64,000 nt of DNA from Nitrospinota bacterium (GTDB taxonomy: Bacteria; Nitrospinota; Nitrospinia; UBA9942). This document shows, one piece after another, positions 1,675 through 62,052 of the stretch. How positions within the stretch are numbered: the first letter of the stretch is position 1; each line of letters opens with the position of its first letter. Where the stretch lies: positions 7,855 to 71,854 of the forward strand of contig JACQBS010000051.1 of NCBI GenBank assembly GCA_016194325.1, in the 5' to 3' direction. The notes under the pieces were generated by a model. That model saw only the letters and a list, made by a program, of their open reading frames with translations. It did not search any database and was not told the DNA's origin. A program made the translations under genes and the position numbers.

Positions 1675-3879
1675 ATGTTTAGAAAATACCCGAATAAAAA
1701 CCTGAATTTAACTACAGAAGCACAGAGGACACGGAGACACAGAGATTTTAAAAGCGGTTTAAACAGTTTAAACGGTTTAATCCGGTTTTTTCCTCAGTGC
1801 CTCAGTGTCTCTGTGGCTTATAACTTCCTGCTCAAAATAAAGCTGATATTACTTATTTTTTTAGTGGCAGTTGATTTTTTTCTTTTAATCCTTATCTATA
1901 CGCCGATTGTAGATGCAACAGGGGGGGCATTTCCATATACGAAACATGGAGGTGTTGCAGGGAATGGAGTGGATCGCTCTACAACAGGGAACTGGCCCCC
2001 TGCATCTGGTGCAGGCACATATCAGAAAGGTGAATGCACTCACTGTCATGAACCACATGCAAGCTTCGGTGGAGACGAACCCTATCCCAACTATACCAAT
2101 CACCCCTCCTTTATGACGCAGGAAGAAGCTCAGGGGCCAGACCCATATCTTCTATTTGCCGATGATAACGCAAATCTATGCTGGACATGCCATGAGACTT
2201 TTCAGTTTACAGGCAAACCATTAGGATGGGGGGCATATGGATTTTATCAGGGGAGGAGTGTCTATCTGTCATCAACACATGGTGACCCATTGAAAAATGC
2301 AAATATGTTATGGCCGGGTATTAGCGGTGCAACGGTTCATCCAAGAAAAGCCCGCCCATCTACACTCAATGGTGTTTCTCAAAAAGGTATATGTCTGAAC
2401 TGTCATACTCCTCATGGTATTCGCGGTAGTGAAGGGAATGCCTATGATACAGATGCAGTCCCTGAGTCAAAACAGCTTACAACGAGCAACCCTTCTGTTA
2501 CTGCGGATTATCTTATTCCCCGTCAGCTTAATGCATGGGAAGAGAAGCTATGTGAAACCTGTCATGACGCAAGTGGGCCTGCAATTAACAACATTCAGAG
2601 TGAAATTGATAAAAGAAGTCTTGGGGGAAGCGGCCACCCTGTGGATGATACAAATCTATCAGGGCGACATGTTGTCAATGAAACTTTTCCTATAACTTCA
2701 AAGCATGTGGAATGCTATGATTGTCATAACCCTCATGTCATTAAATCAAGCAGCAGGGTTGAAGGATTAAGATATGTAGATATAAGTGGTGTTCCAAAGG
2801 ATCCAGCAGCAGGTGATTCACAGCCTTATGTCTATCAAATATGTTTTAAATGCCATGGCGATGGATATGCTAATTTTATTCCTGCGAAAACCCATCCCGG
2901 TCCCGGGCTTAATCCAAATCATTCAAATCATCCACTGCGAACCAGTACTGGAAATCCTGCCTCAGGTAATACTAATGGGAGCAATAAAAGGCTTGAATTT
3001 AACCCTTCAAGCACAAGCTCTCAATCAGATTGCGGATCATACCAGGCATCTGATTGCAGGCCCAGCCCAAGTCAGAATACTGCCTATCATCCAGTAGCCT
3101 CTACTGGTAGGAATACATCGGCTGCTATACAGAGGCAATTACTGGCTGGTCTATCTCCTGACAAGACTATTATGTGCACTGATTGCCATAATTCCGAGGC
3201 AACAGGAAGCATACAGGGACCTGTAACAGAATCCAACTTAAGGGCTACAGACCTTCCATCGGGATATGCCGGAGTAAGCCCTATAGGTCCTCATGGCTCA
3301 CAACCACCTTCTGTAGGCGGTTACCAGACATATCGGATTTTAAGGGCCAATTACAATACGACATTAGGGGGGGCAACTGAGCCATTTACTTCTTACAATC
3401 GTGATAATTTTGCCCTCTGTTTTCTCTGCCATAATGAAGAGGCATTTACAAAACAGTGTGGTGACCCTTATTTTGAGTGTGGTAGCTGGACAGATGGGCC
3501 CAAGACAAACTTCTATAGCACATTATATGATATAAATCTCCATGCAACCCATATAGCCAAAAAACCTGTTTTTGCAACTACTGGAACTTCTACAACCTGT
3601 GCAAACTGTCATTATAATGTTCATTCCAATATAGAGGCTGCCAATACTATGTATAACGACAGCAATGATCCGAACTGGAAGAGACCTCTGGATGGCGGAA
3701 CTCGTCTTATTAATTTTTCTCCAATTGTTGGAGCCAGCTCATGGTGGACCTATAGCAGACCATTCTGGGGGTGCGTTAAAACGACTGGCATATGGAGGAA
3801 GGGGTGTGATTTTAACTGTCATGGCTTCGATATGGAATTATGGTATTCACCCCCTAATATTGCAGACAGCTGTTACTAA
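1675..3879 (+). CDS. Multihaem c-type cytochrome (9 CXXCH + 1 CX3CH), membrane-anchored or secreted
   Basis: Haem motifs: CTHCH, CWTCH, CLNCH, CETCH, CYDCH, CFKCH, CTDCH, CFLCH, CANCH plus CDFNCH, many in a CXXCHxPH context. Hydrophobic segment LILLIFLVAVDFFLLILIY. The C-terminal ~390 aa are paralogous to the C-terminus of 11392..16635. Start uncertain: the ORF opens at TTG 1606 and ATG 1675 was chosen. The N-terminus is read through hairpin element 1715..1816. Confidence 0.8.
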   Translation: MFRKYPNKNLNLTTEAQRTRRHRDFKSGLNSLNGLIRFFPQCLSVSVAYNFLLKIKLILLIFLVAVDFFLLILIYTPIVDATGGAFPYTKHGGVAGNGVDRSTTGNWPPASGAGTYQKGECTHCHEPHASFGGDEPYPNYTNHPSFMTQEEAQGPDPYLLFADDNANLCWTCHETFQFTGKPLGWGAYGFYQGRSVYLSSTHGDPLKNANMLWPGISGATVHPRKARPSTLNGVSQKGICLNCHTPHGIRGSEGNAYDTDAVPESKQLTTSNPSVTADYLIPRQLNAWEEKLCETCHDASGPAINNIQSEIDKRSLGGSGHPVDDTNLSGRHVVNETFPITSKHVECYDCHNPHVIKSSSRVEGLRYVDISGVPKDPAAGDSQPYVYQICFKCHGDGYANFIPAKTHPGPGLNPNHSNHPLRTSTGNPASGNTNGSNKRLEFNPSSTSSQSDCGSYQASDCRPSPSQNTAYHPVASTGRNTSAAIQRQLLAGLSPDKTIMCTDCHNSEATGSIQGPVTESNLRATDLPSGYAGVSPIGPHGSQPPSVGGYQTYRILRANYNTTLGGATEPFTSYNRDNFALCFLCHNEEAFTKQCGDPYFECGSWTDGPKTNFYSTLYDINLHATHIAKKPVFATTGTSTTCANCHYNVHSNIEAANTMYNDSNDPNWKRPLDGGTRLINFSPIVGASSWWTYSRPFWGCVKTTGIWRKGCDFNCHGFDMELWYSPPNIADSCY
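1715..1816 (+). repeat. Tandem-unit hairpin element, CACAGAG/CTCTGTG family with CGGTTTAAA-repeat loop (copy 1)
   Basis: Left arm cagaagcacagaggacacggagacacagag; right arm cctcagtgcctcagtgtctctgtgg, about 21/29 complementary. Loop aaaagcggtttaaacagtttaaacggtttaatccggtt. A near-identical element lies at 17537..17643. Confidence 0.85.
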
Positions 3880-3893
3880 TGGAAGGAAGAAAA

Positions 3894-3979
3894 AGTGCCA
3901 GTGAACAGTGTCAGTGTCAGTATAGGATAGAAGTTGAGAAGTTAAGAGGTTTTTCTCATCTTCCCATCTTCTCAACTTC
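3894..3979 (+). repeat. Heptamer block (GTGYCAG) followed by hairpin GAAGTTGAGAAG/CTTCTCAACTTC; possible terminator or RNA-processing hairpin
   Basis: agtgccagtgaacagtgtcagtgtcag occupies 3894..3920. A perfect 12-bp stem pairs gaagttgagaag (3931..3942) with cttctcaacttc (3968..3979) and is followed by cattttt. It sits between stop 3879 and start 4003. Confidence 0.6.
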
Positions 3980-4002
3980 CATTTTTAAGGGAGGTATTTA
4001 AA

Positions 4003-4290
4003 ATGAAACGAATGATTTTAATATTATGTTTCTGTATCCTGTTTTTAATTCTCCATATCCCGCTAATCCCGTTTTACAGCATAACGGGACAGGTCTATTC
4101 TGAGATAAAAAAACCTGCATTGGGGACAGAGATAAAACCTGATTGCAAGGAATGTCACAGCAGGAATGCGACGATAAGGGGGAGTGGAAAACCTGCTATA
4201 CCTGGCCAGCCTATGAAGGGGGATGGTAAACCTACCCCACCTCCAGACCACATCAGGAAAGATAAGAGGAAAAATAAAGGGCAGCAGTAA
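4003..4290 (+). CDS. Small secreted mono-haem (CXXCH) protein, hypothetical
   Basis: GGGAGG RBS 8 nt upstream of the ATG. Hydrophobic N-terminus MILILCFCILFLILHIPLI. Single CKECH motif. Lys/Pro-rich tail. Confidence 0.5.
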   Translation: MKRMILILCFCILFLILHIPLIPFYSITGQVYSEIKKPALGTEIKPDCKECHSRNATIRGSGKPAIPGQPMKGDGKPTPPPDHIRKDKRKNKGQQ

Positions 4291-4310
4291 ATAGGAAATT
4301 ATAAAAACTT

Positions 4311-4451
4311 GCCACAGAGTCACGGAGATTTCTTTAATTTATAGTACAGGAATTTAAATGTTGAGATTGCTTCACCTTCGGTTCGCAATGACAAACAAAA
4401 TTAATAGCAATCTAATTTATTTATTTCTCTGTGCCTCTGTGTCTCTGTGGC
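4311..4451 (+). repeat. Tandem-unit hairpin (CACAGAG/CTCTGTG family) spanning the start codon of the next gene
   Basis: The left arm gccacagagtcacggagat (4311..4329) is complementary in about 13/15 terminal positions to the right arm tctctgtgcctctgtgtctctgtggc (4426..4451). ATG 4388 lies in the loop. The right arm encodes LCASVSLWL of the signal peptide. Confidence 0.8.
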
Positions 4452-5122
4452 TTATTTTATTCTCAAGCATTGGTTGTAAAACAGCTACCCAAAAGGATGA
4501 AGTAAAAACAGATGTAGAAGTAATAGATAAAGAAGGGTTTGGTTCTGTCCCTTTTTTAGAAACTGGTAAACTTGCCTTCACAACAGAGGAGGCAAAGGCA
4601 AAGATGGAGGTGAGGTTGAAGAGAGAAAAAGAGGAACTTGAAAGAAAAAAAGGTGAATTTCAAGCCCAGGCAACAACCCGATGGACAACTGATTTCTGGA
4701 TACCCCCTCCAACGAATCCTCCGCTGGTATCCGCCCTTAGGGAATTTCCAAAAGATTCATTCGGTTATCCTGATTGGAGTATGGCTGTCAAAAGGGGTAT
4801 TATAAATCCGTTAGATTCAATTAAAGGGGAAAGAGTTAAAAAGGAGCAGGAAGAATTTAATCAAGATATAATATTTCAGATAAACGATAGGATGATGGCA
4901 AATGTCCGTTTCCCTCACAGTGTACATAATTACTGGCTTTCATGTAAGGTCTGTCATCCTGCTATCTTTATAGCAAAAAGAGGCGGCAATGATTTTGGAA
5001 TGACAGATATCTGGAATGGTAAATTTTGCGGGCGGTGTCATGGTAAGGTTTCGTATGCCCCTAAGGGATTTGAAAACTGCATCCGCTGTCACAGTGTGAG
5101 GAGAGAGAAGGTTGGTTTTTAG
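4388..5122 (+). CDS. Tri-haem c7-type cytochrome domain lipoprotein
   Basis: C-terminal VRFPHSVHNYWLSCKVCHPAIF...MTDIWNGKFCGRCHGKV...FENCIRCHS matches the c(7)-type tri-haem domain pattern (FPH..H....C..CH...C..CH...C..CH). The N-terminus has lipobox-like LFSSIGC. The ORF opens at 4358; ATG 4388 is preferred. Confidence 0.75.
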   Translation: MTNKINSNLIYLFLCASVSLWLILFSSIGCKTATQKDEVKTDVEVIDKEGFGSVPFLETGKLAFTTEEAKAKMEVRLKREKEELERKKGEFQAQATTRWTTDFWIPPPTNPPLVSALREFPKDSFGYPDWSMAVKRGIINPLDSIKGERVKKEQEEFNQDIIFQINDRMMANVRFPHSVHNYWLSCKVCHPAIFIAKRGGNDFGMTDIWNGKFCGRCHGKVSYAPKGFENCIRCHSVRREKVGF

Positions 5123-5151
5123 TTTGTTCATGTATAGGAAATTATAAAATT

Positions 5152-5228
5152 AACCACAGGTGAACACAGGTAAACGCTGAAAATAAAAAAAATAAAATAA
5201 CTGTGTTAATCTGTGTTTATCTGTGGTT
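5152..5228 (+). repeat. Decamer-unit hairpin element (AACCACAG-GTGAACACAG / CTGTGTTTAT-CTGTGGTT), empty loop
   Basis: Left arm aaccacaggtgaacacaggtaaac; A-rich loop; right arm ctgtgttaatctgtgtttatctgtggtt. Preceded by the TAGGAAATTATAAAA box (5135..5150). Same family as 10908/11307 and 54092..54172. Confidence 0.85.
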
Positions 5229-5249
5229 TCATTAAGTTTTTGTTCTTTT

Positions 5250-7130: not shown

Positions 7131-10100
7131 ATGGACAACGACATGAGTAACCACAAATACACAAGCAAAAAATTAAAGCGAAATAGGGAAACTCTCTATC
7201 TTCCTCCTTTCCCTATTTTTCTTTTTGTGTTTTTGTGGTTAATTATTTTTTCTAATATAGCATTTGCAGAGATTGCTCCAACCACTGTTTATCTATCCGA
7301 TATTAAGAGTGGTCTCTCTGTCCCTGTCCACATAGCTACAGATAAATGGGCGAATATCTATGTAACCGATCCCGGCAGGCAGCAGGTTCATAAATTTAAT
7401 GCCATCGGTGACCTCAAGTTAACGATTACCGGTATTACCGCTCCACTTGGAGTAGCAGTAGATAGTCAGGGGAATATATATATAGGTGATGACAGTAATA
7501 ACAATGTCTCGGTTTTTGATTCTGCCGGTAAGTTTCTTCGCAAATTAGGCTCAGGCAATGATGAGTTTATCATGCCCAATGATATTGTCATAGAGCCATC
7601 TTCAGGACGAATATATGTCACTGATTCAAAGGCAAACATAGTCAAGGTCTACAATCCTGATGGTTCTTTATCCTTTAACATCAGCGGTATTCTTTTTCCA
7701 ACAGGTATTCATATAGATTCTAAGAAGGGGGAGCTTCTTATAGGTGACCTTATAAACTCTCAGGTAAAGGTCTTTGACCTCTCCGGAAATTTTCTAAGAA
7801 GTTTTGGCTCAAGTGGTGTGGGTGCTGGTCTTATTAGCAGTCTGCAGGGGCTGACTGTGGATAAGAGTGGAAGGATATATGTTGTTGATGCCCATAAGGG
7901 ATGGGTTCAGGTCTTTGATTCAGCAGGGAATTACCTTTCCTTTATTGGAAGTGGTAATCTATATACACCGCTGGATGTGATGATAGACCCATACAATAGA
8001 CTTATTGTCTCATCATCTTCTGATGGGAAGCTATCCATTTACGGTATTGATGGTGGTAACCTCCCATCTAATTGGAATGAAAATTACCTGCCTGATACTG
8101 ATGGAGATGGGATGCCTGATGCATGGGAGGAGGCAAACGGACTCAATCCAAATCTTAATGATGCCTCCCTTGACCCTGATAATGACGGCCTTACAAATCT
8201 CAATGAGTATCTATCCGGCTCAGACCCCCACAATCCTGATACTGATGGAGATGGTTTAAAAGACGGTGTTGACCCAAGCCCGGGAATAGCTACTAATAAT
8301 AAACCATCAGCAAATGCCGGTCCTGATATGACATATGACCCGGGTATTATTACTCTTAATGGAAACGGCAGCAGTGACCCAAATTCCCTGTCCCTTAAGT
8401 ATACATGGACAGAGAGCGGGACGAATCCTGCAAATGTAACTCTTTCAGATAATGGGACAGTAACAGCAATTAAACCAACATTTATTGCTACAAAAGCTGG
8501 AGTTTATAAATTTACTCTCAAGGTTGCGAATAACTATTTTGAAAGTAATCCCGATGATGTTCTGATTACAATCAGGAATTTTACTCCAACAGCCTATGCA
8601 GGGTTGGACCAGACTGTCAGTGGTAATACACAGGTCAATATTAGTGGAGCAGGCAGTTTAGATGCAAATGGAGATGCACTAACATATAAGTGGACACAGG
8701 TTTCAGGCACTCAGGTGAGCCTTATTGGAGGAAGCACGAGAGACGCAAATTTTACCCCACAGAGCTCAGGGGTATATATCTTCAGGCTTATCGTGAGTGA
8801 TGGTGTCAATACCAGTGCACCTGATGAGATAAACATAACAGTCAACAGTTCCAATACTGTCCCTGTGGCAGATGCAGGTGTTGACCAGGTCGTTTATTTG
8901 CCTGCTACAGTAACCTTAAACGGTAATAGAAGCAGTGATGGTGATGGAGACCCATTGACATATAGTTGGAATCTCTTATCCGGGCCAAAGGCTGTTACAT
9001 TATCCAATGCCGCTAATAAAAACCCCACATGGACAACTGATACCCCGGGTATCTATACCTTTGCCCTGACTGTCTCCGATGGAAAGGATAATAGCATCTC
9101 TGATAGTGTAAATATTACTGTAAACGGCGCAAATCAGGTTCCTGTTGCAAATGCAGGCACGGATCAGAATGTAATACTCTATTCAACTGTTACCTTAGGG
9201 GGAGGGATGAGCTACGACACGGATAATTCCCCCTCTCCTCTTACATATAAATGGACACAGGTATTTGGAACAACTGTCTCTCTTAACAATTCCACCAGCA
9301 TGACCCCGACATTTGTTCCAATCCACGAAGATGTGCTTAGATTTCAGCTCACCGTTAGTGATGGGCTGAATACCAGTCTATACGATGAGGTTGAGATAAA
9401 GGTAGCAGGCAGTAACATACCCCCTGTGGCTAATGCAGGGAATGACCAAACGGGTATAGTAGGCATATTTATCAAACTTAACGGAACAGGGAGTATGGAT
9501 AAGGATGGGGATACGCTGACCTATCAGTGGACACAGGTGAGAGGTGCATCAGTAATACTCTCCAACATATATTCAAGAGAGCCTACCTTCACACCTTCAC
9601 AACCGGGTATCTATGAATTTATGCTATTAGTGAAAGACAATATTACTTCAAGCTCCGATACAGTTATGATAACAGTTAATAGTCCGCAGAACTCCCTGCC
9701 GCTTGCCAATGCAGGAATAGACAGGATTGTGGAGGTTGATTCTACTGTCCTGCTTAATGGTGGAGGGAGTGATGCAGATGGAGACCCGCTAACCTACAGA
9801 TGGCAATTTGTAAGCGGGCCTGCCTCTATTATTTTATCCAGCACTTCAGCAGCAAATCCAGCTTTTGTGCCAAAGATTATAGGAAGCTACATATTCAGGC
9901 TTACTGTAAATGATACCAAAGGGGATAGCAGTCCTGATGATGTTCAGATTTCAGTGGCTCCTAAAGGTGCCATTGTATTCAATATTAAAAATGGGAAAGA
10001 CAATCTCCTTTCAGCAACCGATTTGACGATATATCCATGGGTTGACCTCTTGATTCCTAACGGGTCTGTAAATGGAAACATGGATATAGCAATTGCAGAA

Positions 10101-10883: not shown

Positions 10884-10907
10884 ATTAAAAGATTAAGGAA
10901 ATAATGA

Positions 10908-11335
10908 AACCACAGATAAACACAGATGAACACAGAAAAAGAATTCCTTTACAAAGAATTAACCGGGGAAATAATAGAGGCATCATATAATGTTCATAAT
11001 AGTCTGGGTTGTGGGTTACTTGAAAAGGTATATGAGAATTCACTTATATGGGAGATAGAATTAATGGGGAGAAAAGTTTCTTCACAAAGAGAGTTCAAAG
11101 TAATTTATCGTAAGAAAGAGGTTGGAATATATTATGCAGATTTAGTTGTAGAGGATAAGGTGATAGTTGAAGTGAAATCGGTAGAAAGGATAGATGATAT
11201 TCATCGTGCACAATTGTTAAACTATCTGAGAATATCTGGCTTAAGGGTTGGGTTGATTATAAACTTTGCCAGATCTAAATTAGAATATGAGAGATTGGTA
11301 GTTTAACCTGTGTTTATCTGTGTTCATCTGTGGTT
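10908..11335 (+). repeat. Inverted decamer-repeat arms bracketing the GxxExxY gene (gene-in-loop hairpin cassette)
   Basis: The left arm aaccacagataaacacagatgaacacaga (10908..10936) contains the ATG. The right arm cctgtgtttatctgtgttcatctgtggtt (11307..11335) starts 1 nt after the stop. The arms are complementary, with two decamer units swapped in order. Confidence 0.85.
10926..11306 (+). CDS. GxxExxY protein (PD-(D/E)XK nuclease superfamily)
   Basis: GLLEKVY is the eponymous G-x-x-E-x-x-Y motif. Length 126 aa, with the typical ...YYADLVVEDKVIVEVKS...HRAQLLNYL... core. Confidence 0.85.
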   Translation: MNTEKEFLYKELTGEIIEASYNVHNSLGCGLLEKVYENSLIWEIELMGRKVSSQREFKVIYRKKEVGIYYADLVVEDKVIVEVKSVERIDDIHRAQLLNYLRISGLRVGLIINFARSKLEYERLVV

Positions 11336-11391
11336 AATGCATAATTAAGGTAATTAGAAAATGGAAATTCTTAAAGGAGGAATACACAAAA

Positions 11392-16639: not shown

Positions 16640-16761
16640 AGCAATGAGCAATGAGTGCTAAGCGATGAGTAAAAACTTATTGCTAATCACACATTATGAA
16701 ATTATGATTCGCAATTTATTATTTACATTGCTCATTGCTCATTGCTTATCACTCATTGCTT
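16640..16761 (+). repeat. Octamer-unit hairpin (GCAATGAG/CTCATTGC) with the gene start codon in its loop
   Basis: The left arm agcaatgagcaatgagtgctaagcgatgagt pairs with the 3' part of the right arm (ctcattgcttatcactcattgct) in about 21/23 positions. The loop contains gaaattATGATTCGCAATTT (ATG 16704). The right arm encodes LLIAHCLSLIAYA. Confidence 0.8.
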
Positions 16762-17531
16762 ATGCAAGTGAGATGGTTCTTATACCGGAGGGTAAGTTTA
16801 TAATGGGAAGTCGTGGAGACGGCGGAGATGAAGGTGTCTTAGGGGTGGATGTTGGGGTTGACCAGATTCCGCAAAGGGAGGTCTTCTTGAAGGCTTTTTA
16901 TATGGACAAATATGAGGTTACTGTCCAAGAGTATAAGGAGTTTGCAAAGGCAACAGGTCATCCCCTTCCCGGTCTTTTGACAGGTGAAGACAACCCCCTA
17001 ACCCCCTTTATTAAGGGGGAATTTAATGTGAAGGAGTGGGCAGTTAAATATCCTCCCATAGAGGATGATTTTCCAATCAATGATGTAACTTATATGGATG
17101 CGGAGGCTTATTGTTCATGGGCAGGTAAAAGGCTGCCTACTGAAGAGGAATGGGAGAAGGCTGCGAGGGGGAAAGATGGGAGGTTATACCCATGGGGAAA
17201 TGATAAAACAATTGGAAAGGCGAATACAATAGAGTGGTCAAAGGAAAAGGTGGCAGCGGTTGCTGTCGGGAGTTTTCCGACAGATATAAGCCCTTATGGA
17301 GTTTACGATATGGCTGGAAATATCATGGAATGGACATCTTCATGGTATGAGGCATATCCGGGGAGCAAACTAAAACGAGCACAATTTGGAAAAAAGTATA
17401 AGGTGATGAAAGGCGGGGCATGGATGGGACCAATGACACCCTTTGCACGGGGAGCACATCGGTATGCAGCAGGTGTTACAGAGAGAAACCATCATCCCCA
17501 TTTTGGATTTAGATGTGCAAAGGATATATAA
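16704..17531 (+). CDS. Secreted FGE-sulfatase-fold (SUMF1/formylglycine-generating-enzyme family) protein, catalytic Cys pair absent
   Basis: MVLIPEGKFIMGS...YMDKYEVTVQEYKEF...VTYMDAEAYCSWAGKRLPTEEEWEKAARG.DGRLYPWGN...YGVYDMAGNIMEWT...GFRCAKD. No GGS(Y/F)LCH.SYC motif. The ORF opens at ATG 16665 within the repeat arm. ATG 16704 (MIRNLL...) is preferred by analogy with 17660 and 19169. Confidence 0.8.
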   Translation: MIRNLLFTLLIAHCLSLIAYASEMVLIPEGKFIMGSRGDGGDEGVLGVDVGVDQIPQREVFLKAFYMDKYEVTVQEYKEFAKATGHPLPGLLTGEDNPLTPFIKGEFNVKEWAVKYPPIEDDFPINDVTYMDAEAYCSWAGKRLPTEEEWEKAARGKDGRLYPWGNDKTIGKANTIEWSKEKVAAVAVGSFPTDISPYGVYDMAGNIMEWTSSWYEAYPGSKLKRAQFGKKYKVMKGGAWMGPMTPFARGAHRYAAGVTERNHHPHFGFRCAKDI

Positions 17532-17536
17532 AATTA

Positions 17537-17643
17537 GCCACGGAGACACGGAGGCACAGAGTTTTTAAAAGCGGTTTACACGGTTTGAACAGTTTAAACG
17601 GTTTAATCTGGTTTATATCTCTGTGTCTCTGTGACTCTGTGGC
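17537..17643 (+). repeat. Tandem-unit hairpin element, CACAGAG/CTCTGTG family with CGGTTTAAA-repeat loop (copy 2)
   Basis: Left arm gccacggagacacggaggcacagag; right arm tctctgtgtctctgtgactctgtggc, about 21/25 complementary. The loop aaaagcggtttacacggtttgaacagtttaaacggtttaatctggtt is homologous to the loop of 1715..1816. Confidence 0.85.
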
Positions 17644-17659
17644 AAGAAAGGGTGAAATT

Positions 17660-19160: not shown

Positions 19161-19168
19161 TAAAACTT

Positions 19169-44403: not shown

Positions 44404-44460
44404 TGAAAGTGTAAGTGAAAGTGTAAGTGAAAAGAGTTAACTTACACTTACACTTGCACT
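44402..44460 (+). repeat. Intergenic hexamer/heptamer hairpin (AGTGTAAGTGAAAG / CTTACACTTACA) between TolB-like genes 3 and 4
   Basis: Sequence: agtgaaagtgtaagtgaaagtgtaagtgaaaag-agttaa-cttacacttacacttgcact. It overlaps stop codon 44401..44403 and ends 13 nt before ATG 44474. Confidence 0.85.
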
Positions 44461-44473
44461 ATAAGGAGGAGCC

Positions 44474-46649: not shown

Positions 46650-47607
<958 letters not shown>

Positions 47608-48510: not shown

Positions 48511-48627
48511 AGGATTATAAAAATAATGGAACACGAATTACACGAAAAAGGTGTCAGTGAACAGTGTCAGTGTCAGAAAAAATACTTACATATTCCCCCC
48601 TTAATAAAGGGGGTGAGGGGGTTGTTA

Positions 48628-49491
48628 ATGAGAAGGGTTGCACTCATACTTACACTCACACTTACACTTATTTCAGATAGTGTAAACGCTAAGGAATGCA
48701 CACTGCTGGAGCCTGAGGCACTGAAAAGGGCTATAGAAAATAAATCTATATATGAGATGATTATATTTGATGTTCGTCCGCGGTATACTCCTGACTCGAA
48801 GCGTAGGTTTGATCTTGAGACTAATGTGAAGCGTATCCCGTCGAGTCTCTGGGCGCCTCTTGAAAAGATTGAACTGGACCTGGTTGGTAAGGTGGAGGAA
48901 CTTATTGATAGGAATGTTATTCTGGTGGGGGAGAATACAGAGTCCGCAGAAAGTGTATGCAGGTTTATGATGAAAAAAGATTATGGAATTCGTAATATAT
49001 ATGTCTTAAAAGGGGGTATGGAGAAATGGGATGGTCCTATTAAAGATGATATTACAAAAGTTGAATGTGCGATGATTACCTCCAGAGAGTTGATGAATAT
49101 GATGAAATCTGGAAAAAATGTTGAGATAGTTGACAAACGTTTAGCAGATGAATATCATGAGGGACATATACCAGGTGCAGTATTACGACCTGGCGAAATG
49201 AGACAGCCTTCACTAAAATATCTTATAACAAAACGGGAATTGCGTATAAAAAGGGCGCGGGAGAATACTATCGTCGTCTATGTGTATGATAATGAAGTTC
49301 AAACCATGCTGGATTGTAAGTATGAAAAATATTTCTCACATCCTGCATGGTATCCTGATGGTAATAATGATAATAAGAAAGCAAAAAAAGATGTTTATGT
49401 GCTTAGAGGCGGAATGAAGGTATGGGAAGGAGAAGTAAAAAAAGATTATCTGGAAATATTGAAAAAGAGAGTTAAGGAGAAACTGAAATGA
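48628..49491 (+). CDS. Secreted tandem rhodanese-homology-domain protein lacking the active-site Cys
   Basis: The signal peptide is MRRVALILTLTLTLISDSVNA. There are two rhodanese-like units: IIFDVRP...ILVGENTESAES...VLKGGMEKW and VEIVDKRLADEYHEGHIPGAV...VVYVYDNEVQT...VLRGGMKVW. The positions of the catalytic C-x5-R loop carry no Cys. The ORF-track start at 48526 translates repeat elements. Confidence 0.7.
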   Translation: MRRVALILTLTLTLISDSVNAKECTLLEPEALKRAIENKSIYEMIIFDVRPRYTPDSKRRFDLETNVKRIPSSLWAPLEKIELDLVGKVEELIDRNVILVGENTESAESVCRFMMKKDYGIRNIYVLKGGMEKWDGPIKDDITKVECAMITSRELMNMMKSGKNVEIVDKRLADEYHEGHIPGAVLRPGEMRQPSLKYLITKRELRIKRARENTIVVYVYDNEVQTMLDCKYEKYFSHPAWYPDGNNDNKKAKKDVYVLRGGMKVWEGEVKKDYLEILKKRVKEKLK

Positions 49492-49494
49492 ATT

Positions 49495-49563
49495 AAGTGT
49501 AAGTGAACAGTGACAGTGTCAGTTAAAGGTCTTTTGCTGACACTAACACTAATCACTGACACT
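49495..49563 (+). repeat. Intergenic heptamer hairpin (GTGTCAG/CTGACAC) between the two rhodanese-like genes
   Basis: Sequence: aagtgtaagtgaacagtgacagtgtcagt-taaaggtcttttg-ctgacactaacactaatcactgacact. It starts 4 nt after stop 49491, and RBS AGGAGG follows at 49570. Confidence 0.85.
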
Positions 49564-49580
49564 TTATTAGGAGGTGCAAT

Positions 49581-50440: not shown

Positions 50441-51355
50441 ATGAAGAAATATGGAATACTTTTAGTGATATTTTTTTTCTACTCCATTTCCCCGCAGGTT
50501 GTAAGCGGAGAAGATATGGTTTTTGTCAAAGGCGGGTGTTTTCAGATGGGAGATACTTTTGGAGATGCAGAGAGTAAAAATAGAGAGAGCAAAGAAAAAC
50601 CTGTGCATAAGGAAGGTGACGAAAAGCCTGTGCATGAGGTATGTGTGGATGATTTTTATATAGGGAAGTATGAAGTAACAGTGGGTGAGTTCAGGGAATT
50701 TTTAAATACTACAGGATACATGACGGAAGATGAAATTGGAGATGGCTGTTTTGTCTTTGTAGGAAGAGAATGGAAAAAGGACAAAAGCAGGAATTGGCGT
50801 AATCCTGGTTTTTTACAGGATGATACTCATCCAGTATGCTGTGTATCATGGAATGATGCTGTAGCTTATGCTGAGTGGTTTTCAGGTAAGCTTGCCCCTG
50901 CAGGCAGTAAGCAGGGGACAGGCTTGTCCTCGCAAGCTATAAGCGGGGAAAAGAGGTATCGTCTGCCAACAGAGGCGGAGTGGGAGTATGCGGCAAGGAG
51001 CGGAGGGAAAAGGGAGAAATATTCTGGTGGTAACGATTTAGACAGTGTAGCGTGGTATGCTAACAACTCAGGCAGTAAAACCCATCCGGTAGGACAGAAA
51101 AATCCAAATGTATTGGGATTATATGACATGACAGGGAATCTATGGGAATGGTGTTCAGACTGGTATGATGAGAAATATTACAGTAATAGTCCAAAGGATA
51201 ATCCTAAAGGTGCTGTTAGCGGAATTTATCATGTTTTGCGCGGCGGTTCATGGTACAATGTTTCGCATCGCTTAGGAACTTTTGTCCGCGCCCAGCGCGA
51301 GCCTGAGAAGCGGGCTGACGGCAGTGGGTTTCGGCTTGCAGCCTCCGTGAAATAA
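50441..51355 (+). CDS. Secreted FGE-sulfatase-fold protein (second subfamily) with tandem stem-loop insertion
   Basis: The signal peptide is MKKYGILLVIFFFYSISPQVVSG. Motifs: MVFVKGGCFQMGD, FYIGKYEVTVGEFREFLNTTGY, HPVCCVSWNDAVAYAEWFS, YRLPTEAEWEYAARSGG, GLYDMTGNLWEWCSDWY, LRGGSW, GFRLA. Relative to the paralogue at 47608, the insert GKLAPAGSKQGTGLSSQAISGEK is extra. Confidence 0.8.
   Translation: MKKYGILLVIFFFYSISPQVVSGEDMVFVKGGCFQMGDTFGDAESKNRESKEKPVHKEGDEKPVHEVCVDDFYIGKYEVTVGEFREFLNTTGYMTEDEIGDGCFVFVGREWKKDKSRNWRNPGFLQDDTHPVCCVSWNDAVAYAEWFSGKLAPAGSKQGTGLSSQAISGEKRYRLPTEAEWEYAARSGGKREKYSGGNDLDSVAWYANNSGSKTHPVGQKNPNVLGLYDMTGNLWEWCSDWYDEKYYSNSPKDNPKGAVSGIYHVLRGGSWYNVSHRLGTFVRAQREPEKRADGSGFRLAASVK
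50891..50949 (+). repeat. Two adjacent copies of the 27-nt stem-loop element CTTGYCCYYGCA-N7-GCRGGGA, in frame in the CDS
   Basis: The two copies are cttgcccctgcaggcagtaagcagggga (50891..50918) and cttgtcctcgcaagctataagcgggga (50923..50949), with stems cccctgc/gcagggg and tcctcgc/gcgggga. Other copies lie at 38056..38083, 46117..46143, 53578..53604 and 54839..54865. Confidence 0.9.
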
Positions 51356-51422
51356 GAGTCAAAGAGTTAAAGTGTCAGAGAGTCAGGGCTTTGATACTTT
51401 GATACTCTGATACTTTGACACT
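51355..51422 (+). repeat. Intergenic octamer hairpin (AGTCAAAG/CTTTGATA) downstream of FGE-like gene
   Basis: Sequence: agagtcaaagagttaaagtgtcagagagtcag-gg-ctttgatactttgatactctgatactttgacact. It starts at the stop codon of 50441..51355. Confidence 0.85.
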
Positions 51423-51445
51423 ATTATATATCCCCACAAAATTCC

Positions 51446-54091: not shown

Positions 54092-54172
54092 AACCACAGA
54101 TAAACACAGATGGACGCAGATATTTTTTAAAATCTTTTTTCTATCTGTGTTTATCCGTGTTCATCTGTGGTT
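54092..54172 (+). repeat. Decamer-unit hairpin element (AACCACAGATAAACACAG family), empty loop
   Basis: The left arm aaccacagataaacacagatggacgcagata and the right arm tatctgtgtttatccgtgttcatctgtggtt are 26/31 complementary, with a 19-nt AT loop. It is followed by the reverse complement of the AGGAAATTATAAAA box (54175..54189). Confidence 0.9.
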
Positions 54173-54191
54173 GCTTTTATAATTTCCTACA

Positions 54192-56686: not shown

Positions 56687-56698
56687 TCCCAAAAAAAA

Positions 56699-56762
56699 GT
56701 GTAAGTGTAAGTGTAAGTTAAAGGAATCGTTTTTTTCTGACACTGACACTGACACTGACACT
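56699..56762 (+). repeat. Intergenic hexamer hairpin (GTGTAA)n / (CTGACA)n
   Basis: Sequence: agtgtaagtgtaagtgtaagt-taaaggaatcgttttttt-ctgacactgacactgacactgacact. The arms are complementary in 5 of 6 positions per unit. Confidence 0.9.
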
Positions 56763-56770
56763 ATATAGAA

Positions 56771-59560: not shown

Positions 59561-60533
59561 TCAAGTTGGCTCAGCCAAGAAACTTGTCCCGTTATGTCTT
59601 AAAACGGGATGGGCATGCGGCACTCTTTTCTTTATTCTATTATTTTTAACAGGATGTGTAACTAATCAGAAGGAGGGATATTCGCTAAAAAATAGGATTC
59701 GTGCTGAATCAGAGGCATTGGTAAAAAAACAGCAGGATGATGAAAGGCAAAGGAAGGCAATAGTACTATTCAATAACGGATTTCAGCTTATAAATAATGA
59801 TCCGATAGGTGCAAATGCACTTTATCGTGAGGGCATAATACTTATGCCGGAGAGATGGGAGGCTTATTATAATCTCGGCATTACTTATATGAAGCTTTAC
59901 GACCACGAGAGGGCAATAAAGGAATTCTCTAATGCGTTAAAATACAATGCACCACAATCTAAGGTGTATAATGCCATTGGAGTAACATACCAATCTATGG
60001 GAAGAAACGGAGATGCAATAAAGTATTTTAAAAAGGCACTCTCTTTAGAAAAGTCGCCAATTGTAATTATGAATATTGCAAACATTTATCAGGATATGGG
60101 GCAGAAAGAGGAATCAATAAAGCTCTATCATCAGATTGAGTTTGTAGATATTTCAAAATTACCCCTTCATAATAACATAGGCAGTCTGAAATATAAGATG
60201 GGCGATTTTAAAGGTGCCAGGGATGAGTTTAATATGGCGTTAGAAAAAGAAGGGGAAAATATACAGGTGCTTTATTATCAGGCACAGACTCTTCTGATGC
60301 TTGAAGAATATGAGAATGCCTTGAATGTTTATAAGAAAATAGCAGCCAAAAACTCTGCTGACCCTGAGCCTTACAGAAATATGGGTATAATATATGAGAT
60401 TTATCTTGGAGATATGGCAAGTGCATATGAGAATTATACTGCGTATATAAAAAACGGAGGAGAGAAGACTAAGGATATGGAATCATGGATAGAGGTGGTA
60501 AAGGTGAAAATGGTAAAGAAGGAGGGGCAATGA
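59532..60533 (+). CDS. TPR-repeat lipoprotein
   Basis: Lipobox LLFLTGC. TPR units: AYYNLGITYMKLYDHERAIKEFSNALKYNP.., VYNAIGVTYQSMGRNGDAIKYFKKALSLE, NIANIYQDMGQKEESIKLY, and others. It overlaps the upstream gene by 29 nt and the downstream start by ATGA. Confidence 0.7.
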   Translation: MLSRDTVKISQVGSAKKLVPLCLKTGWACGTLFFILLFLTGCVTNQKEGYSLKNRIRAESEALVKKQQDDERQRKAIVLFNNGFQLINNDPIGANALYREGIILMPERWEAYYNLGITYMKLYDHERAIKEFSNALKYNAPQSKVYNAIGVTYQSMGRNGDAIKYFKKALSLEKSPIVIMNIANIYQDMGQKEESIKLYHQIEFVDISKLPLHNNIGSLKYKMGDFKGARDEFNMALEKEGENIQVLYYQAQTLLMLEEYENALNVYKKIAAKNSADPEPYRNMGIIYEIYLGDMASAYENYTAYIKNGGEKTKDMESWIEVVKVKMVKKEGQ

Positions 60534-60868
60534 ACAGGAGACAGAAGTCAGAAGTCAGAAGTCAGAAGTCAGATTTTATGTTCTCTGTCCTCTGTCTTCT
60601 GTCCTCTGTCTTCTGTCTCCTGTTAATTATTACCCCTGCATATAGTGCCAATAAGGGGATAATGAGAGGAGATGAACCTGCAGTGGTTGAGCATATGATA
60701 AAGATAGAGGGGAGTGTTGAAAGGCCGAGGGTTATTTTTATTGTGCCGAGGTCAAAATTATGGAGAGACGATATTTTTAAAAAGAGTTTTATTGCGGATA
60801 TATTGAGACCTGTATATCCAAAACTTTCAATAAAGGAAGGGGGTCCCGATAAGGATTCAAGGAGGTAA
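60530..60868 (+). CDS. Small secreted hypothetical protein whose signal peptide is encoded by a 38-bp-stem hairpin
   Basis: AGGAGG RBS and an ATGA overlap with the upstream stop. The leader is MNRRQKSEVRSQKSDFMFSVLCLLSSVFCLLLIITPAYSA. The mature part has no recognisable domain. The ORF-track start at 60485 is inside the upstream gene. Confidence 0.55.
   Translation: MNRRQKSEVRSQKSDFMFSVLCLLSSVFCLLLIITPAYSANKGIMRGDEPAVVEHMIKIEGSVERPRVIFIVPRSKLWRDDIFKKSFIADILRPVYPKLSIKEGGPDKDSRR
60535..60622 (+). repeat. Hairpin (CAGAAGT)4 / (TCTGTCY)5 covering codons 2-31 of the CDS
   Basis: The left arm is caggagacagaagtcagaagtcagaagtcagaagtcag (60535..60572). The reverse complement of the right arm (60585..60622) is caggagacagaagacagaggacagaagacagaggacag. 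About 32/38 positions are complementary, and the loop is 12 nt. Confidence 0.9.
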
Positions 60869-60873
60869 ATTAT

Positions 60874-61512
60874 ATGGAGATATTAGCAAGTTTTTTTAAG
60901 GATGGTGGATTATTCATGTATTTTATACTAATGGCATCTGTTATTGGAATAGCCATAGTGGTGGAGCGTGGTATTACTTTACTATTCAGATATAATGTAG
61001 ATGCCCGCATTCTATGGGAGAGGGTCAGCAAATTTATAGCGGATGGAGATATAGAAAAGGCAAGGTTACTATGCAAAGATTCCAACGCACCTCTTTTCAA
61101 GATATTATATGCCGGTCTTTTAGTATCTGATAGGACGGAAAGGGAAATTCAAAATTCCATAGATGAGGTTGCTCTGGAAATAGTACCTGCAATAGATAAG
61201 AGGGTTTCTTATCTCTCTACCCTTGCCAATATTGCAACCCTTTTAGGTCTGCTTGGCACTATTCAGGGATTGATCCAGGCCTTTGCTGCAGTTGGAGTTG
61301 CAGACCCTTCTCAAAAAGCATCACTCCTTGCTAATGGTATTTCCGTAGCCCTATATACAACCGCCTTTGGTCTTATTGTAGCCATACCGTTACTTGCTAT
61401 GTATACAGTTCTTCAGGCAAAGGCACATAGATTAATAGATGAAATAGATGAGTTTTCCGTAAAATTTATCAATCTGTTGAACAGGAGGAAGAGTGGCATA
61501 CAGACCCAGTAA
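60874..61512 (+). CDS. MotA/TolQ/ExbB proton-channel family protein
   Basis: Three TM segments and the family signature LSTLANIATLLGLLGTIQGLIQAF. Confidence 0.9.
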   Translation: MEILASFFKDGGLFMYFILMASVIGIAIVVERGITLLFRYNVDARILWERVSKFIADGDIEKARLLCKDSNAPLFKILYAGLLVSDRTEREIQNSIDEVALEIVPAIDKRVSYLSTLANIATLLGLLGTIQGLIQAFAAVGVADPSQKASLLANGISVALYTTAFGLIVAIPLLAMYTVLQAKAHRLIDEIDEFSVKFINLLNRRKSGIQTQ

Positions 61513-61975
61513 GAGAAGGCGTCATTCTATATCAGATACTGATCTCAATCTGACCCCTGTAATGAATCTCTTTATGGTTATTATACCCTTTCTCCTCCTT
61601 ACAGCAGTCTTTGCAAAGACTGCAATAATTGATGCATATCTACCACAAGAGAGTGGAAATGGGGGAGGGAGCCAAACTGCTGCCCCCAAAATACTTATTG
61701 TAAAAGCAACAGAGAAGGGGATTGAACTTGGAGGAATAGGGGAAGGAATTTTTATTCCGATGCTTGAAGGAAATTTGAATTATAAACAGCTTTCTATAGA
61801 ACTGGCGAGGCTTAAAAATTCGCATCCTGATAAAGAAGATGCGGTTCTTTTGTTTCCCCCGCAGATAGCTTATGACCATGTAGTTCAGATAATGGATGCA
61901 GCGAGGGAAACAACCGGTGAAAATGGTATAAAAAAGACACTCTTTCCAATAATCTCGCTTGGAGAAAATAAATAA
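61493..61975 (+). CDS. ExbD/TolR biopolymer transport protein
   Basis: GTG start after AGGAGG, overlapping the upstream gene by 20 nt. The N-terminus is RRRHSISDTDLNLTPVMNLFMVIIPFLLL (ExbD/TolR TM signature) and is followed by a periplasmic domain. Confidence 0.85.
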   Translation: MAYRPSKRRRHSISDTDLNLTPVMNLFMVIIPFLLLTAVFAKTAIIDAYLPQESGNGGGSQTAAPKILIVKATEKGIELGGIGEGIFIPMLEGNLNYKQLSIELARLKNSHPDKEDAVLLFPPQIAYDHVVQIMDAARETTGENGIKKTLFPIISLGENK

Positions 61976-61976
61976 T

Positions 61977-62052
61977 GTGTCAGAGAGTTAAAGTATCAAA
62001 GAGTCAAAATTTTTTTACTATGATACTTTGAACTCTGAGATACTTTGACTCT
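61977..62052 (+). repeat. Intergenic octamer hairpin between the two ExbD/TolR genes
   Basis: Left gtgtcagagagttaaagtatcaaagagtcaaaa; loop tttttttacta; right tgatactttgaactctgagatactttgactct. In the best register about 20/23 positions pair, and alternative registers are possible. Confidence 0.8.

Follow-up and report, generated by a model that had tools for sequence, protein, structure and literature searches.

The window analysed here is a stretch of 64,000 nucleotides from an uncultured groundwater Nitrospinota bacterium (assembly GCA_016194325.1, contig JACQBS010000051.1, positions 7,855 to 71,854, forward strand). It contained about 30 hairpins made of an arm, a loop and a complementary arm, and the arms were tandem arrays of short units. 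These hairpins are probably several families of small palindromic elements that spread horizontally and are built like the intervening sequences (IVSs) of 23S rRNA. In its full-length form, such an element would be a promoterless one-gene cassette between co-oriented host genes, with CAC(A/G)G(A/G)T-type arms around a nuclease gene or octamer arms around the gene of an IVS protein. All 31 large open reading frames (ORFs, at least 100 aa) lay on the + strand. Their products were secreted or envelope proteins, including multihaem cytochromes, six FGE-sulfatase paralogues, four PD40 beta-propeller paralogues, rhodaneses, a WD40 protein, TPR proteins and ExbB/ExbD/TonB.

A first-pass annotation of this DNA had listed ten unit pairs from what it took as at least nine sequence-distinct families, and it had suggested that they were locally generated rather than transposed. 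All ten pairs were recovered at or near their listed places by Tandem Repeats Finder (TRF), inverted-repeat search and reading of the sequence. Several consensus families remained, but the list collapsed to about three superfamilies plus a few singletons. The superfamilies were the CAC[AG][AG]A[GT] type, AGTNTCA(AR)-type hexamers and octamers, and purine-rich CAGAAGN/GCAAGAG heptamers. Copies of the two largest families lay scattered over unrelated loci and other phyla, tied to specific cargo and with arms, loops and end motifs that were nearly identical, and therefore local generation was not supported.

The arrays and hairpins were compared with shuffles of the window. Our scan gave 51 non-overlapping tandem arrays of 5-11 nt units (47-51 over all counts), compared to 3-7 in ten Markov shuffles, and 14 hairpins that were ungapped and had arms of 14 nt or more, compared to 0-2 in shuffles. 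TRF returned 133 rows of 5-21 nt arrays, plus 126-nt WD40 protein repeats; its long-period rows (126, 249 and 375 nt at 51732-53300) were ordinary WD40 protein repeats according to Pfam and had no relation to the hairpins. Folding resulted in z <= -3 against mononucleotide shuffles in 26 of 32 candidate regions, most of those at -5 to -13, where two of the 32 regions overlap and two are single arms of ORF-bearing cassettes. The window contained 0.73 arrays per kb and its relatives contained 0.5-1.2 per kb; these relatives were groundwater metagenome-assembled genomes (MAGs) labelled Nitrospinae/Nitrospinota (L002 with 98% nucleotide identity to the window, L001 with about 75%). Array density was only about 0-0.2 per kb in 45 loci of other taxa fetched by the same ExbB query. 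This meant that the feature was a property of the lineage and not a general trait of operons.

Several known classes of repeats and structures did not account for the hairpins. The cyanobacterial frame of short tandemly repeated repetitive (STRR) sequences was rejected: the closest genomes were Nitrospinae/Nitrospinota MAGs, and the units were 6-10 nt long and paired with their complement. A search of the window against Rfam returned 0 matches at gathering thresholds. No tandem-arm hairpin was called as an intrinsic terminator in 35-55 kb, and the stems were without U-tails. The terminator scan made 20 calls in total against 14.3 expected, and the calls near hairpins were CCCCC palindromes. 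Identity with intrinsic terminators was rejected, as no U-tract directly followed the tandem-arm stems. In the literature, we found no paper that described these hairpins or tied GxxExxY genes to such arms.

The first-pass annotation had ascribed an A-T loop to the architecture, but two of the "loops" were genes, a PDDEXK_3/GxxExxY ORF and a 23S_rRNA_IVP ORF. The first of these cassettes was as follows:

10886..11340, + strand: GxxExxY (PDDEXK_3) cassette, with Shine-Dalgarno (SD)-like AAGGAAAT, left arm 10908-10935, ORF 10926-11306 and right arm 11308-11335

The ORF matched Pfam at 3e-38 and TIGR04256. Its ATG lay inside the left arm, its stop codon abutted the right arm, and the arms were 93% complementary. 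D72/E82/K84, the D...ExK nuclease triad, and E33/Y36 were invariant in 120 GxxExxY homologues, which indicated that the protein was under selection. The CACAGAT-type arms formed the terminal inverted repeats of the cassette, and these arms recurred in viral contigs and in MAGs of Nitrospinota, Elusimicrobiota and Nitrospirota. Homologues with 70-100% identity were present in Nitrospinota, Elusimicrobiota, Omnitrophica and Nitrospirota MAGs. The conserved cassette unit consisted of GATTAARGGAAAnAATGAAACCACAGATAAACACAG followed by ATGAACACAG and, at the other end, of TAA followed by CCTGTGTTTATCTGTGTTCATCTGTGGTT, with 2 or 3 decamers in the right arm. As the first-pass annotation had noted, the order of units was permuted between the arms (left arm ..AT-A-AA..AT-G-AA.., reverse complement of the right arm ..AT-G-AA..AT-A-AA..). 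This permuted order was also kept in the copies of other genomes.

The association of cargo and arms was observed across phyla. An identical protein, P0003, occurred with identical arms in at least two genomic contexts, one of which was the position upstream of the giant gene that is taken by the second cassette in the window. The Elusimicrobiota MAG copy had the same arms as the cassette of the window. In the Nitrospirota copy, between gspL and gspM, the units were CACGGAT/ATCCGTG compared to CACAGAT/ATCTGTG elsewhere, a compensatory change of both arms. In the Omnitrophica copy, between birA and coaX, a right arm was identified and no left arm was found. The translated arm was the N-terminal extension of many GxxExxY homologues, for example "PQVNTDKH". 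The exact 18-nt arm string was found in five IMG/VR viral contigs, four of them at 55-62% GC, and two of the five were solo hairpins with the unit order permuted as in the window. A tblastn search of three small proteins against all loci added a single case, a truncated PDDEXK_3 gene in L056.

The second cassette had a different gene and a different arm type:

18696..19167, + strand: IVP cassette (23S rRNA IVS protein, bAvd-like four-helix bundle), with arms 18696-18746 and 19117-19167 and ORF 18769-19131

This ORF matched PF05635 at 3e-36 and TIGR02436, and it was a relative of PDB 2gsc. It was flanked by AGTCAAAG-type octamer arms with the consensus (A/G)G(T/A)GTCA(A/G)AG, which were 78-84% complementary. 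Octamer arms also flanked the IVP homologues in L081-L083, L139 and L140, which included a Thermodesulfovibrionales MAG copy between carA and carB and an Omnitrophota MAG copy. All cargo ORFs of both cassette types pointed in the same direction as the neighbouring genes, suggesting promoterless cassettes that ride on host transcription. A diversity-generating retroelement was considered and rejected; the Avd model matched the ORF weakly (27.6 bits, cut-off 80), and there was no reverse transcriptase in the window.

Most copies in the window were ORF-less "solo" hairpins. The 14-mer end motif AGGAAATTATAAAA occurred in 4 exact copies in the window compared to 0.09 expected, each of them 2-6 nt from a CAC-type arm in either orientation, and ten further copies were found in relatives. 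A second, looser motif (~AGGTTTTTGTTCT) followed the right arm of CAC-type elements. Since the ends were conserved and the arms variable, the CACAGAG, CACGGAG, CACAGAT, CACAGGT, CACGAAT, CACGAAG and CGCAGAT hairpins were taken as one superfamily. The solo CAC-type hairpins may be deletion derivatives of the cassettes, because AGGAAATTATAAAA resembled the SD-and-start region of the cassette, AAGGAAATAATGAAA. L060 had an extra methyltransferase-like gene (3992-4967) at the 48510 site, and its N-terminus MQEIIKLTTNEHELK was the translation of AGGAAATTATAAAA plus a CACGAAT arm.

Covariation of the arms was observed. Own arms were compared with those of other elements in a position-anchored matrix; a MAFFT alignment of pseudo-hairpins was distorted by one member with a 7-nt period. 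In the divergent CAC-type members, own-arm complementarity was 19-22 of 26 positions compared to 9-16 of 26 with the right arms of other elements. The arms stayed complementary through changes on both sides, suggesting that what is maintained is the hairpin itself, either as single-stranded DNA or as RNA. The architecture was kept and the sequence was not, which was consistent with strong selection for structure, the alternative offered in the first-pass annotation. The pair CAGAAGT/TCTGTCT from its list was present, but its complementarity was only 84%. A contribution of slippage was also borne out, as unit number differed among orthologous copies (2 or 3 right-arm decamers; (TGTCTTC)n and (CAGAAGA)n variable).

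Insertion and swap polymorphism was observed at fixed sites. At a given site, strains with 98-99.5% identity could differ, one of them having an unrelated hairpin or no hairpin at all. The occupants of five sites, with more distant genomes included, were as follows:

56687: hairpin in the window only; empty (21-22 nt) in L002 and L056-58
61977: octamer hairpin in the window, L053 and L054; 213-nt CACAGAG element in L002; CTAACAA hairpin in L001; empty (7 nt) in L004
59565: a different hairpin in every genome
51355: octamer hairpin, CGCAGAT element or remnants
60530 (signal peptide): four or more alleles

The junctions showed no target-site duplication at 61977 (AATAAT^TAAAAAT) or 56687. The empty sites were 7-22 nt long and held no seed for the inserted units, yet the empty L002 allele at 56687 contained one CTGACA. 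At site 60530, the L058 allele was identical to that of L003 at 78 of 78 nt, with flanks of about 81% identity in lineages that had diverged by about 20%, and L057 carried an L001-like allele. L002 had the L058 allele plus a nested in-frame 24-nt CCTTCGGCTTCGCTCAGGGCAGGC, which added PSASLRAG; nesting of elements inside one another was common. In a full alignment of the window and L002, 395 of 539 differences fell in six blocks, four of which were hairpin sites, and the remainder was 1.35% diverged. Between L057 and L058, 246 of 300 differences were located at two hairpin sites, and the remainder was 0.47% diverged. A recombination breakpoint at 59565, suspected from blast for these two, was rejected, since the divergence was 0.47% on both sides. 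The L068 orthologue of the FGE gene 17660-18697 (about 90% identity) carried other families in the signal peptide and at both internal sites.

An exact-protein look-up with ExbB gave two short contigs identical to the window (L053 and L054), and these independent assemblies confirmed the allele at 61977. In both Logan contigs, the break fell within the signal-peptide hairpin near 60.59 kb; elements of this kind break up metagenome assemblies. Two larger rearrangements were seen. The FGE-sulfatase/WD40 gene pair 50512-53572 was inverted in six related contigs (L055-L060), and all genes were co-directional only in the window; no clear inverted pair of hairpin arms was seen at the ends of this inversion. 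At L056 5607-6685, there was an extra segment of about 350 nt (an octamer left arm plus a DUF2442-like gene) that was absent from L057 and L058 at 99.5% identity. It was bounded by a direct repeat of about 23 nt from the upstream gene's 3' end (GTTAAGGrGArACTTAAATAGAG). L056, L057 and L058 all had a Uma2 gene at this site, and the window was without it.

The elements occupied three settings. The first was the spacer from a stop codon to the next SD (39996-40071, 44400-44462, 49491-49568, 51354-51422, 56697-56762, 61977-62052, 5152-5228, 17537-17643 and 35695-35828). The second comprised the first 60 or so codons of about 16 of the 31 ORFs, and the third was made up of in-frame elements within mature domains, at positions where the comparison with paralogues showed indels. 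Roughly half of all hairpins and arrays were not intergenic but translated, as signal peptides or as loop insertions in the FGE-sulfatase and PD40 paralogues.

When read in frame, the purine-rich 5' arm gave a polar or charged n-region, the A-run loop gave Lys-Lys and the pyrimidine-rich 3' arm gave a hydrophobic h-region, which was followed by an AxA-type cleavage site. Examples were MNRKEIVLVNSVSVRKK-MLTLTLTLTLTLMLSVYA, MNRRQKSEVRSQKSD-FMFSVLCLLSSVFCLLLIITPAYSA, MNIKKLTLTLTLTLTLTLTLTLAYA and SVSV-KK-ILTLTLTL. In ten proteins, CTGACA or CTTACA hexamers encoded a (Leu-Thr)n h-region. Because NAN and NUN codons are complementary in the genetic code, such a hairpin would be expected to encode "polar then hydrophobic". 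Inside mature domains, the right arm was read in another frame as TDTDT, and no two of the four PD40 paralogues had the same element in the loop after SPDGKEIAFL. The segment "KNTDTVTNTDT" of ORF 36440 aligned with the LTLTL signal peptides of its paralogues. These readings suggested that the hairpin elements are tolerated, and perhaps exapted, as Sec signal peptides.

Among known systems, the IVSs of 23S rRNA (Coxiella, Leptospira, Xanthomonas, Salmonella) appeared to be the best match and the closest relative. The Coxiella IVS is a 428-nt "selfish" element, in which terminal inverted repeats pair into a 28-bp stem and the loop holds an S23p ORF (Warrier et al., PMC4990558). Its 5' arm carries an SD-like AGAAGA followed by 2-3 tandem GACAGAT heptamers, the number of which varies among strains; RNase III makes its cuts at mid-stem, and horizontal acquisition is suspected (PMC4990558). 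The window elements resembled it in their stem-forming terminal inverted repeats (cassette arms of 28-51 nt, 78-93% complementary) and in the PF05635/S23p four-helix-bundle ORF that some IVSs carry in the loop, present here at 18769-19131. In addition, the ACAGAT core of GACAGAT recurred in the CACAGAT arms, and the stems here were 20-45 bp, a length that would be suitable for RNase III. However, IVSs are located in rRNA (helix 9, 25 or 45), whereas the window elements lay between or inside protein-coding genes, with no rRNA in the window. They were also mostly ORF-less, with a second cargo (the GxxExxY nuclease), many arm families and allele swaps between strains. Location in rRNA defines an IVS, and the elements were therefore filed as IVS-like and not as IVS members.

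These observations would fit the following course of events. Elements would arrive or be exchanged at permissive sites, which are stop-to-SD spacers, the 5' signal-peptide segment and surface loops, and filtering by permissive sites would account for the three settings. Once in place, unit number and order would drift by slippage and probably by out-of-register copying from arm to arm. In transcripts, the 20-45 bp stems would probably be cut, or tolerated, like the IVS stems cleaved by RNase III, which would explain their harmlessness between cistrons. The PD-(D/E)XK cargo might be the best candidate for a break that enables homing-like self-copying into hairpin or loop targets. We regard the homing and cargo-as-machinery part of this picture as tentative.

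Several points weighed against the proposal of spreading, IVS-like elements. No transposase, REP-associated tyrosine transposase (RAYT), reverse transcriptase or integrase was present in the window, and no mobility event was directly observed. To our knowledge, PDDEXK_3 and the four-helix-bundle protein are both not among the known mobility enzymes. No cargo-bearing relatives were present in the data for the GCAATGAG, GAAGTTGAG, GGACAGGAT and purine-rich heptamer families. The direction from cassette to solo hairpin, over capture of an ORF by a pre-existing hairpin, was suggested by one motif similarity. Some allele sharing could be due to chimeric metagenome assembly at repeats, though independent assemblies agreed, and some replacements among tandem paralogues could be ordinary gene conversion. 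The single mismatches in the stems were G:U in 15 cases, A:C in 9 and other in 41, and the difference between G:U and A:C was not significant. Since the mismatches had no RNA-strand bias, a function at the RNA level was not demonstrated, and RNA and DNA structure both fitted. Finally, the Coxiella study suggested that S23p is not expressed there (PMC4990558).

Other explanations were weighed against the same data. The hairpins could be host-selected, non-mobile RNA structures, such as RNase III sites, 3' stabilisers or translation modulators, that change by compensatory drift with incidental small ORFs. The sites were conserved across species at 70-90% identity and the sequences were not, the arms covaried, and the A- or purine-rich arm was 5' on the sense strand in every hairpin. 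The SD and start codon of the next gene were left free, and the summed fold energy was similar on the two strands but slightly lower on the + strand (-985 kcal/mol, compared to -913 kcal/mol on the - strand). However, some orthologous sites were empty (L004 at 61977; L002 and L056-58 at 56687), which meant that the structure was not required. G:U was not enriched over A:C, and U-tails and Rfam matches were lacking. Drift could not replace a hairpin completely where the flanks were 99.5% identical, and it could not produce identical sequences in other phyla. We consider this explanation unlikely.

Local generation, in which slippage amplifies a local unit and template switching (quasipalindrome correction or snap-back synthesis) copies the complementary arm, was judged quite unlikely. 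It would explain the variable copy number of units between orthologous copies and arms that were internally homogeneous yet imperfectly complementary, such as (AAGTGT)n and (CTGACA)n at 56697-56762. The permuted unit order suggested out-of-register copying from arm to arm, mismatches without RNA-strand bias would fit a process at the DNA level, and the one CTGACA unit in the empty L002 allele at 56687 pointed in the same direction. In contrast, near-identical arms, loops and end motifs were found at unrelated loci, in other phyla and in viral contigs, and the permuted order was inherited rather than re-created. Empty sites such as TAAAAAT (L004, 61977) offered nothing to amplify, and identical alleles occurred in diverged lineages. 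Full replacement at a strain divergence of 0.5-1.4% was too fast for mutation plus slippage. As the primary origin of the CAC-type and octamer families, local generation is already contradicted.

The elements could also be of the REP/REPIN-RAYT type (REP, repetitive extragenic palindromic sequence) or of the IS200/IS605-PATE type, which are non-autonomous and moved in trans by a Y1 (HUH) transposase encoded elsewhere. The insertions without target-site duplication, the central hairpin with a conserved short motif beside the stem and the strong orientation bias would agree with this. The same was true of the intergenic, multi-copy occurrence and of structure that was more conserved than sequence. 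However, no Y1_Tnp, RAYT or TnpB match was obtained among the 31 ORFs of at least 100 aa in a search that covered the window only, no GTAG-like tetranucleotide was common to the families, and the ORFs placed exactly between the arms were not Y1 transposases. Several unrelated arm families would need several enzymes, and we regard this explanation as improbable. The first-pass annotation had named a single consensus linked to REP/RAYT or an insertion sequence as the finding that would overturn its view; several consensus families were found, with no such enzyme in the window. Metagenome assembly artefact, with the strain differences as chimeric or mis-assembled joins at repeats, was highly improbable: Logan contigs did break inside the hairpin at 60.6 kb and the GxxExxY cassette was joined to different flanks in different contigs, which could be chimeric, but alleles were recovered independently (window = L053 and L054; L056-L058 agree at most sites; L058 = L003; L057 close to L001), flanks of swapped segments were collinear and 99.5% identical on both sides, and reading frames were preserved.

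The proposal of small spreading palindromic elements was then set beside other known systems. Tandem heptamers of the TAACTGA type (Beggiatoaceae, Cyanobacteria, Bacteroidetes) lie at gene boundaries in distant phyla, with suspected horizontal spread and post-transcriptional roles (PMC4679880). They are direct repeats, and 1 of 170 sets was inverted (PMC4679880). The window elements shared with STRR and TAACTGA repeats the tandem heptamers concentrated at gene boundaries and the occurrence in distant phyla. However, those repeats have one unit per family, unpaired with a complement, and no cargo genes, and the host here was neither a cyanobacterium nor a member of Beggiatoaceae. REP sequences, bacterial interspersed mosaic elements (BIME) and REPINs of Enterobacteria and Pseudomonas are short, multi-copy, intergenic palindromes in operons, with strain-variable site occupancy and hairpin-forming doublets. 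They differ in having one consensus per family, a conserved GTAG, a link to RAYT and non-tandem arms, and they are not translated as signal peptides. Here, no Y1_Tnp was found among the window ORFs of at least 100 aa, and no GTAG was common to the families.

Rickettsia palindromic elements (RPE) are palindromic, non-autonomous repeats that are tolerated in frame in coding genes at permissive sites. The window elements were likewise inserted in frame at permissive sites, as in RPEs and MITEs (miniature inverted-repeat transposable elements), but they had tandem-array arms, use as n- and h-regions and a free-living groundwater host, with no sequence relationship. As to the features of MITEs, terminal inverted repeats and many dispersed copies were present, and target-site duplication was absent. 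ORF-bearing relatives with the same arms exist, and their ORFs (PD-(D/E)XK nuclease, four-helix bundle) are not known transposases. The attC site of integrons is a recombination site set by hairpin architecture and not by sequence, and it follows promoterless, co-oriented cassettes. Hairpin architecture and promoterless co-oriented cassettes were shared, but the flanking genes here were conserved syntenic operons, including the gene for a 5498-aa protein, and not cassettes. An attC identity was rejected, as the stem bases ATGAAAC...GTTAATG or GTTTCAT did not fit the R''/R' cores (RYYYAAC / GTTRRRY) and no integrase domain was present in the window. Nostoc small dispersed repeats (SDR) of 21-27 nt, which Elhai et al. 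reportedly described in 2008, are said to insert inside other repeats. The nesting of the 24-nt CCTTCGGCTTCGCTCAGGGCAGGC in the L002 signal-peptide hairpin was similar by description only; the organism and sequences differ.

The remaining features of the window are given below, from those upstream of the two cassettes to the ExbD genes.

1712..1822, + strand: CACAGAG/CACGGAG-type hairpin with (CGGTTTAAA)n loop (TRF; -40.6 kcal/mol, z -5.1); 85% blastn match to L002 15768-15839; sister copy of the hairpin 17533-17647
3925..3985, + strand: intergenic GAAGTTGAG/CTCAACTTC hairpin, with an (AGTGTC)4.5 array at 3894-3921 ahead of it
4293..4458, + strand: CAC-type element with AGGAAATTATAAAA at 4293-4306 and CACAGAG arms at 4304-4327 and 4435-4458, between which gene 4358 starts; the right arm is read as the signal-peptide h-region LCASVSLW
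5136..5228, + strand: solo CACAGGT/CACAGAT decamer hairpin with A-rich loop and end motif at 5136-5149 (-34.3 kcal/mol, z -10.3)
7143..7246, + strand: CACAAAT-type hairpin, the signal peptide of a PKD/NHL protein, both arms translated
16640..16763, + strand: GCAATGAG/CTCATTGC hairpin that spans the start of an FGE-sulfatase gene; LLIAHCLSLIA is read from its right arm
17537..17643, + strand: intergenic CACGGAG/CTCTGTG hairpin with (CGGTTTAAA)n loop (-56.3 kcal/mol, z -8.8); 87% match to L002 15768-15849
17686..17770, + strand: signal-peptide hairpin AGTGTCAG..AAAAAAATA..CTTACAC, encoding TVSVNSVSDRKK-ILTLILTLTLTL
18060-18137 and 18318-18402, + strand: two in-frame hairpins in an FGE-sulfatase gene, each encoding SVKESESQSVKVKN-TDTDT; insertions relative to paralogues
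35684..35828, + strand: CACGAAT/ATTCGTG hairpin with end motif at 35684-35697 (-49.8 kcal/mol, z -9.8), upstream of the Uma2 endonuclease gene 35873-36403
36454..36525, + strand: signal-peptide hairpin (AGTGTY)n..(CTTACA)5, encoding IVLVNSVSVRKK-MLTLTLTLTL
36989..39347, + strand: unpaired in-frame arrays in ORF 36440-39985 (TRF), at indel positions in the paralogue alignment: ACTGAC-type, (CAGAAGC)7, (CAAGGGG)5, (CAGAAGC)3, (ACACTG)5, (AGAAGCC)5 and (AATCGTC)4
39996-40071 and 40101-40153, + strand: intergenic octamer hairpin, then an (ACTSAC)8.5 array that encodes the signal peptide KKLTLTLTLTLTLTLTLTLAYA
41405..41436, + strand: in-frame (AAATCCG)4.6 array (KSEIRNP) in a PD40 loop; complement family of GGATTGC, with units also in Nitrospirota L079 and viral contigs
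42153..42245, + strand: signal-peptide hairpin (AGTGTC)n..A8..(GATACT/GACACT)n (-41.4 kcal/mol, z -13.2)
43553..43613, + strand: in-frame GGACAGGAT/AATCCTGT hairpin in the PD40 loop after SPDGKEIAFL
44400..44582, + strand: nested set of GTGAAAGTGTAA intergenic hairpin (44400-44462), CCCCC palindrome (44497-44540, n-region) and (CACTTA)n signal-peptide array (44541-44582); -70.3 kcal/mol
45702..45736, + strand: in-frame (GGATTGC)5 array in a PD40 gene (TRF, paralogue alignment)
46664..46771, + strand: signal-peptide arrays (CAGAAGA)4.4, GCTTCTT-type and CACTYA-type; the h-region part is (CTCATTG)n in L056
47623..47684, + strand: signal-peptide hairpin AGTGTCAG..GAAAAAAATA..CACTTACAC; L056 has CACGAAG arms around a truncated PDDEXK_3 gene here
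48551..48670, + strand: signal-peptide hairpin with a CCCCC palindrome nested in the loop (fold, sequence reading)
49491..49568, + strand: intergenic GTGTAAG/GTGTCAG hairpin, conserved in L056-58; L056 has an adjoining 1 kb (DUF2442-like and Uma2 genes)
51354..51422, + strand: intergenic octamer hairpin; CGCAGAT-type element with end motif in L055, remnants in L056 and L060
54092..54188, - strand: solo CACAGAT decamer hairpin (54092-54172) in reverse orientation, with end motif 54175-54188 adjoining the start of gene 54192; identical in L002, CACGAAG type instead in L056-58
56697..56762, + strand: intergenic (AAGTGT)3.7/(CTGACA)4.3 hairpin; insertion polymorphism
60529..60628, + strand: signal-peptide hairpin (CAGAAGT)4.6/(TCTGTCY)n, encoding MNRRQKSEVRSQKSD-FMFSVLCLLSSVFCLLL (-53.1 kcal/mol); polymorphic, cassette-like
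61977..62052, + strand: intergenic octamer hairpin between two ExbD genes; identical in L053 and L054

Some smaller features were also found among these. A palindromic CCCCC family (..CCCCCTT-loop-AAGGGGGAYTRAGGGGGTTGT..), with arms of two GGGGG units, was not in the first-pass list. It was located at 44497-44540, 47028-47075, 48594-48630, 16992-17007 and 43773-43790, nested in the loops of other hairpins and was always read in frame, for example as PLNKGGLRGL and SPSILLIGGLTGE. The 24-nt mini-element CCTTCGGCTTCGCTCAGGGCAGGC was present in the window at about 45848-45878 and in L002 at 7598-7625 and about 11880, in either orientation and in frame in coding sequence. L056 had a different mini-element, GCCTCCGCAGGCTAAAGCCTACGGC, in three paralogous signal peptides. 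The genes at 16704, 17660 and 19169, which were otherwise unrelated, had the common start GAAATTATGATTCGyAAA (MIRK/MIRN), suggesting a shared 5' module upstream of the hairpin-encoded signal peptide. The giant gene 19169-35665 was a single 5498-aa ORF with an (LT)n signal peptide, and a 3890-aa fragment of its orthologue was present in L065.

The GGATTGC units were found in other organisms. (GGATTGC)n or its complement (peptides RIADCGL / SAIRNPQ) was present in 42 viral-contig stretches from IMG/VR (L097-L138), some at 58-69% GC, where the arrays sat at the boundaries of phage structural genes. In a Nitrospirota MAG (L079 558-636), a GGATTGC-type hairpin was located where a pseudopilin gene has its 5' end, and L082 249-282 was a further locus with these units. 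The unit vocabulary was common to sequences far beyond this lineage.

If these assembly-breaking repeats were recognised, MAGs from groundwater phyla would be of better quality. At fixed sites, cassette-like swaps of 60-200 nt made up about three quarters of the nucleotide differences between near-identical strains, and current pangenome methods overlook them. Palindromes that encode an n-region plus an h-region suggest a simple route to create or exchange secretion signals. A wider reading is possible, although we find it doubtful as a whole: GxxExxY (TIGR04256) and four-helix-bundle (TIGR02436) proteins might serve as cargo, and possibly as machinery for mobility or maintenance, in a single unrecognised class of promoterless, hairpin-armed cassettes that homes into hairpin or loop targets without target duplication. 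The IVSs of rRNA would then be copies that landed in rRNA, and ORF-less derivatives would colonise operon spacers across several phyla and be recruited as signal peptides, since an arm rich in purines and its complement give a polar and then a hydrophobic stretch. If this is true, there would be a genomic context, and a testable role as hairpin-cassette cargo, for two of the largest bacterial "hypothetical protein" families. The origin of the 23S rRNA IVS, unexplained since about 1990, would also become testable, with the IVS as one landing site of a broader class.

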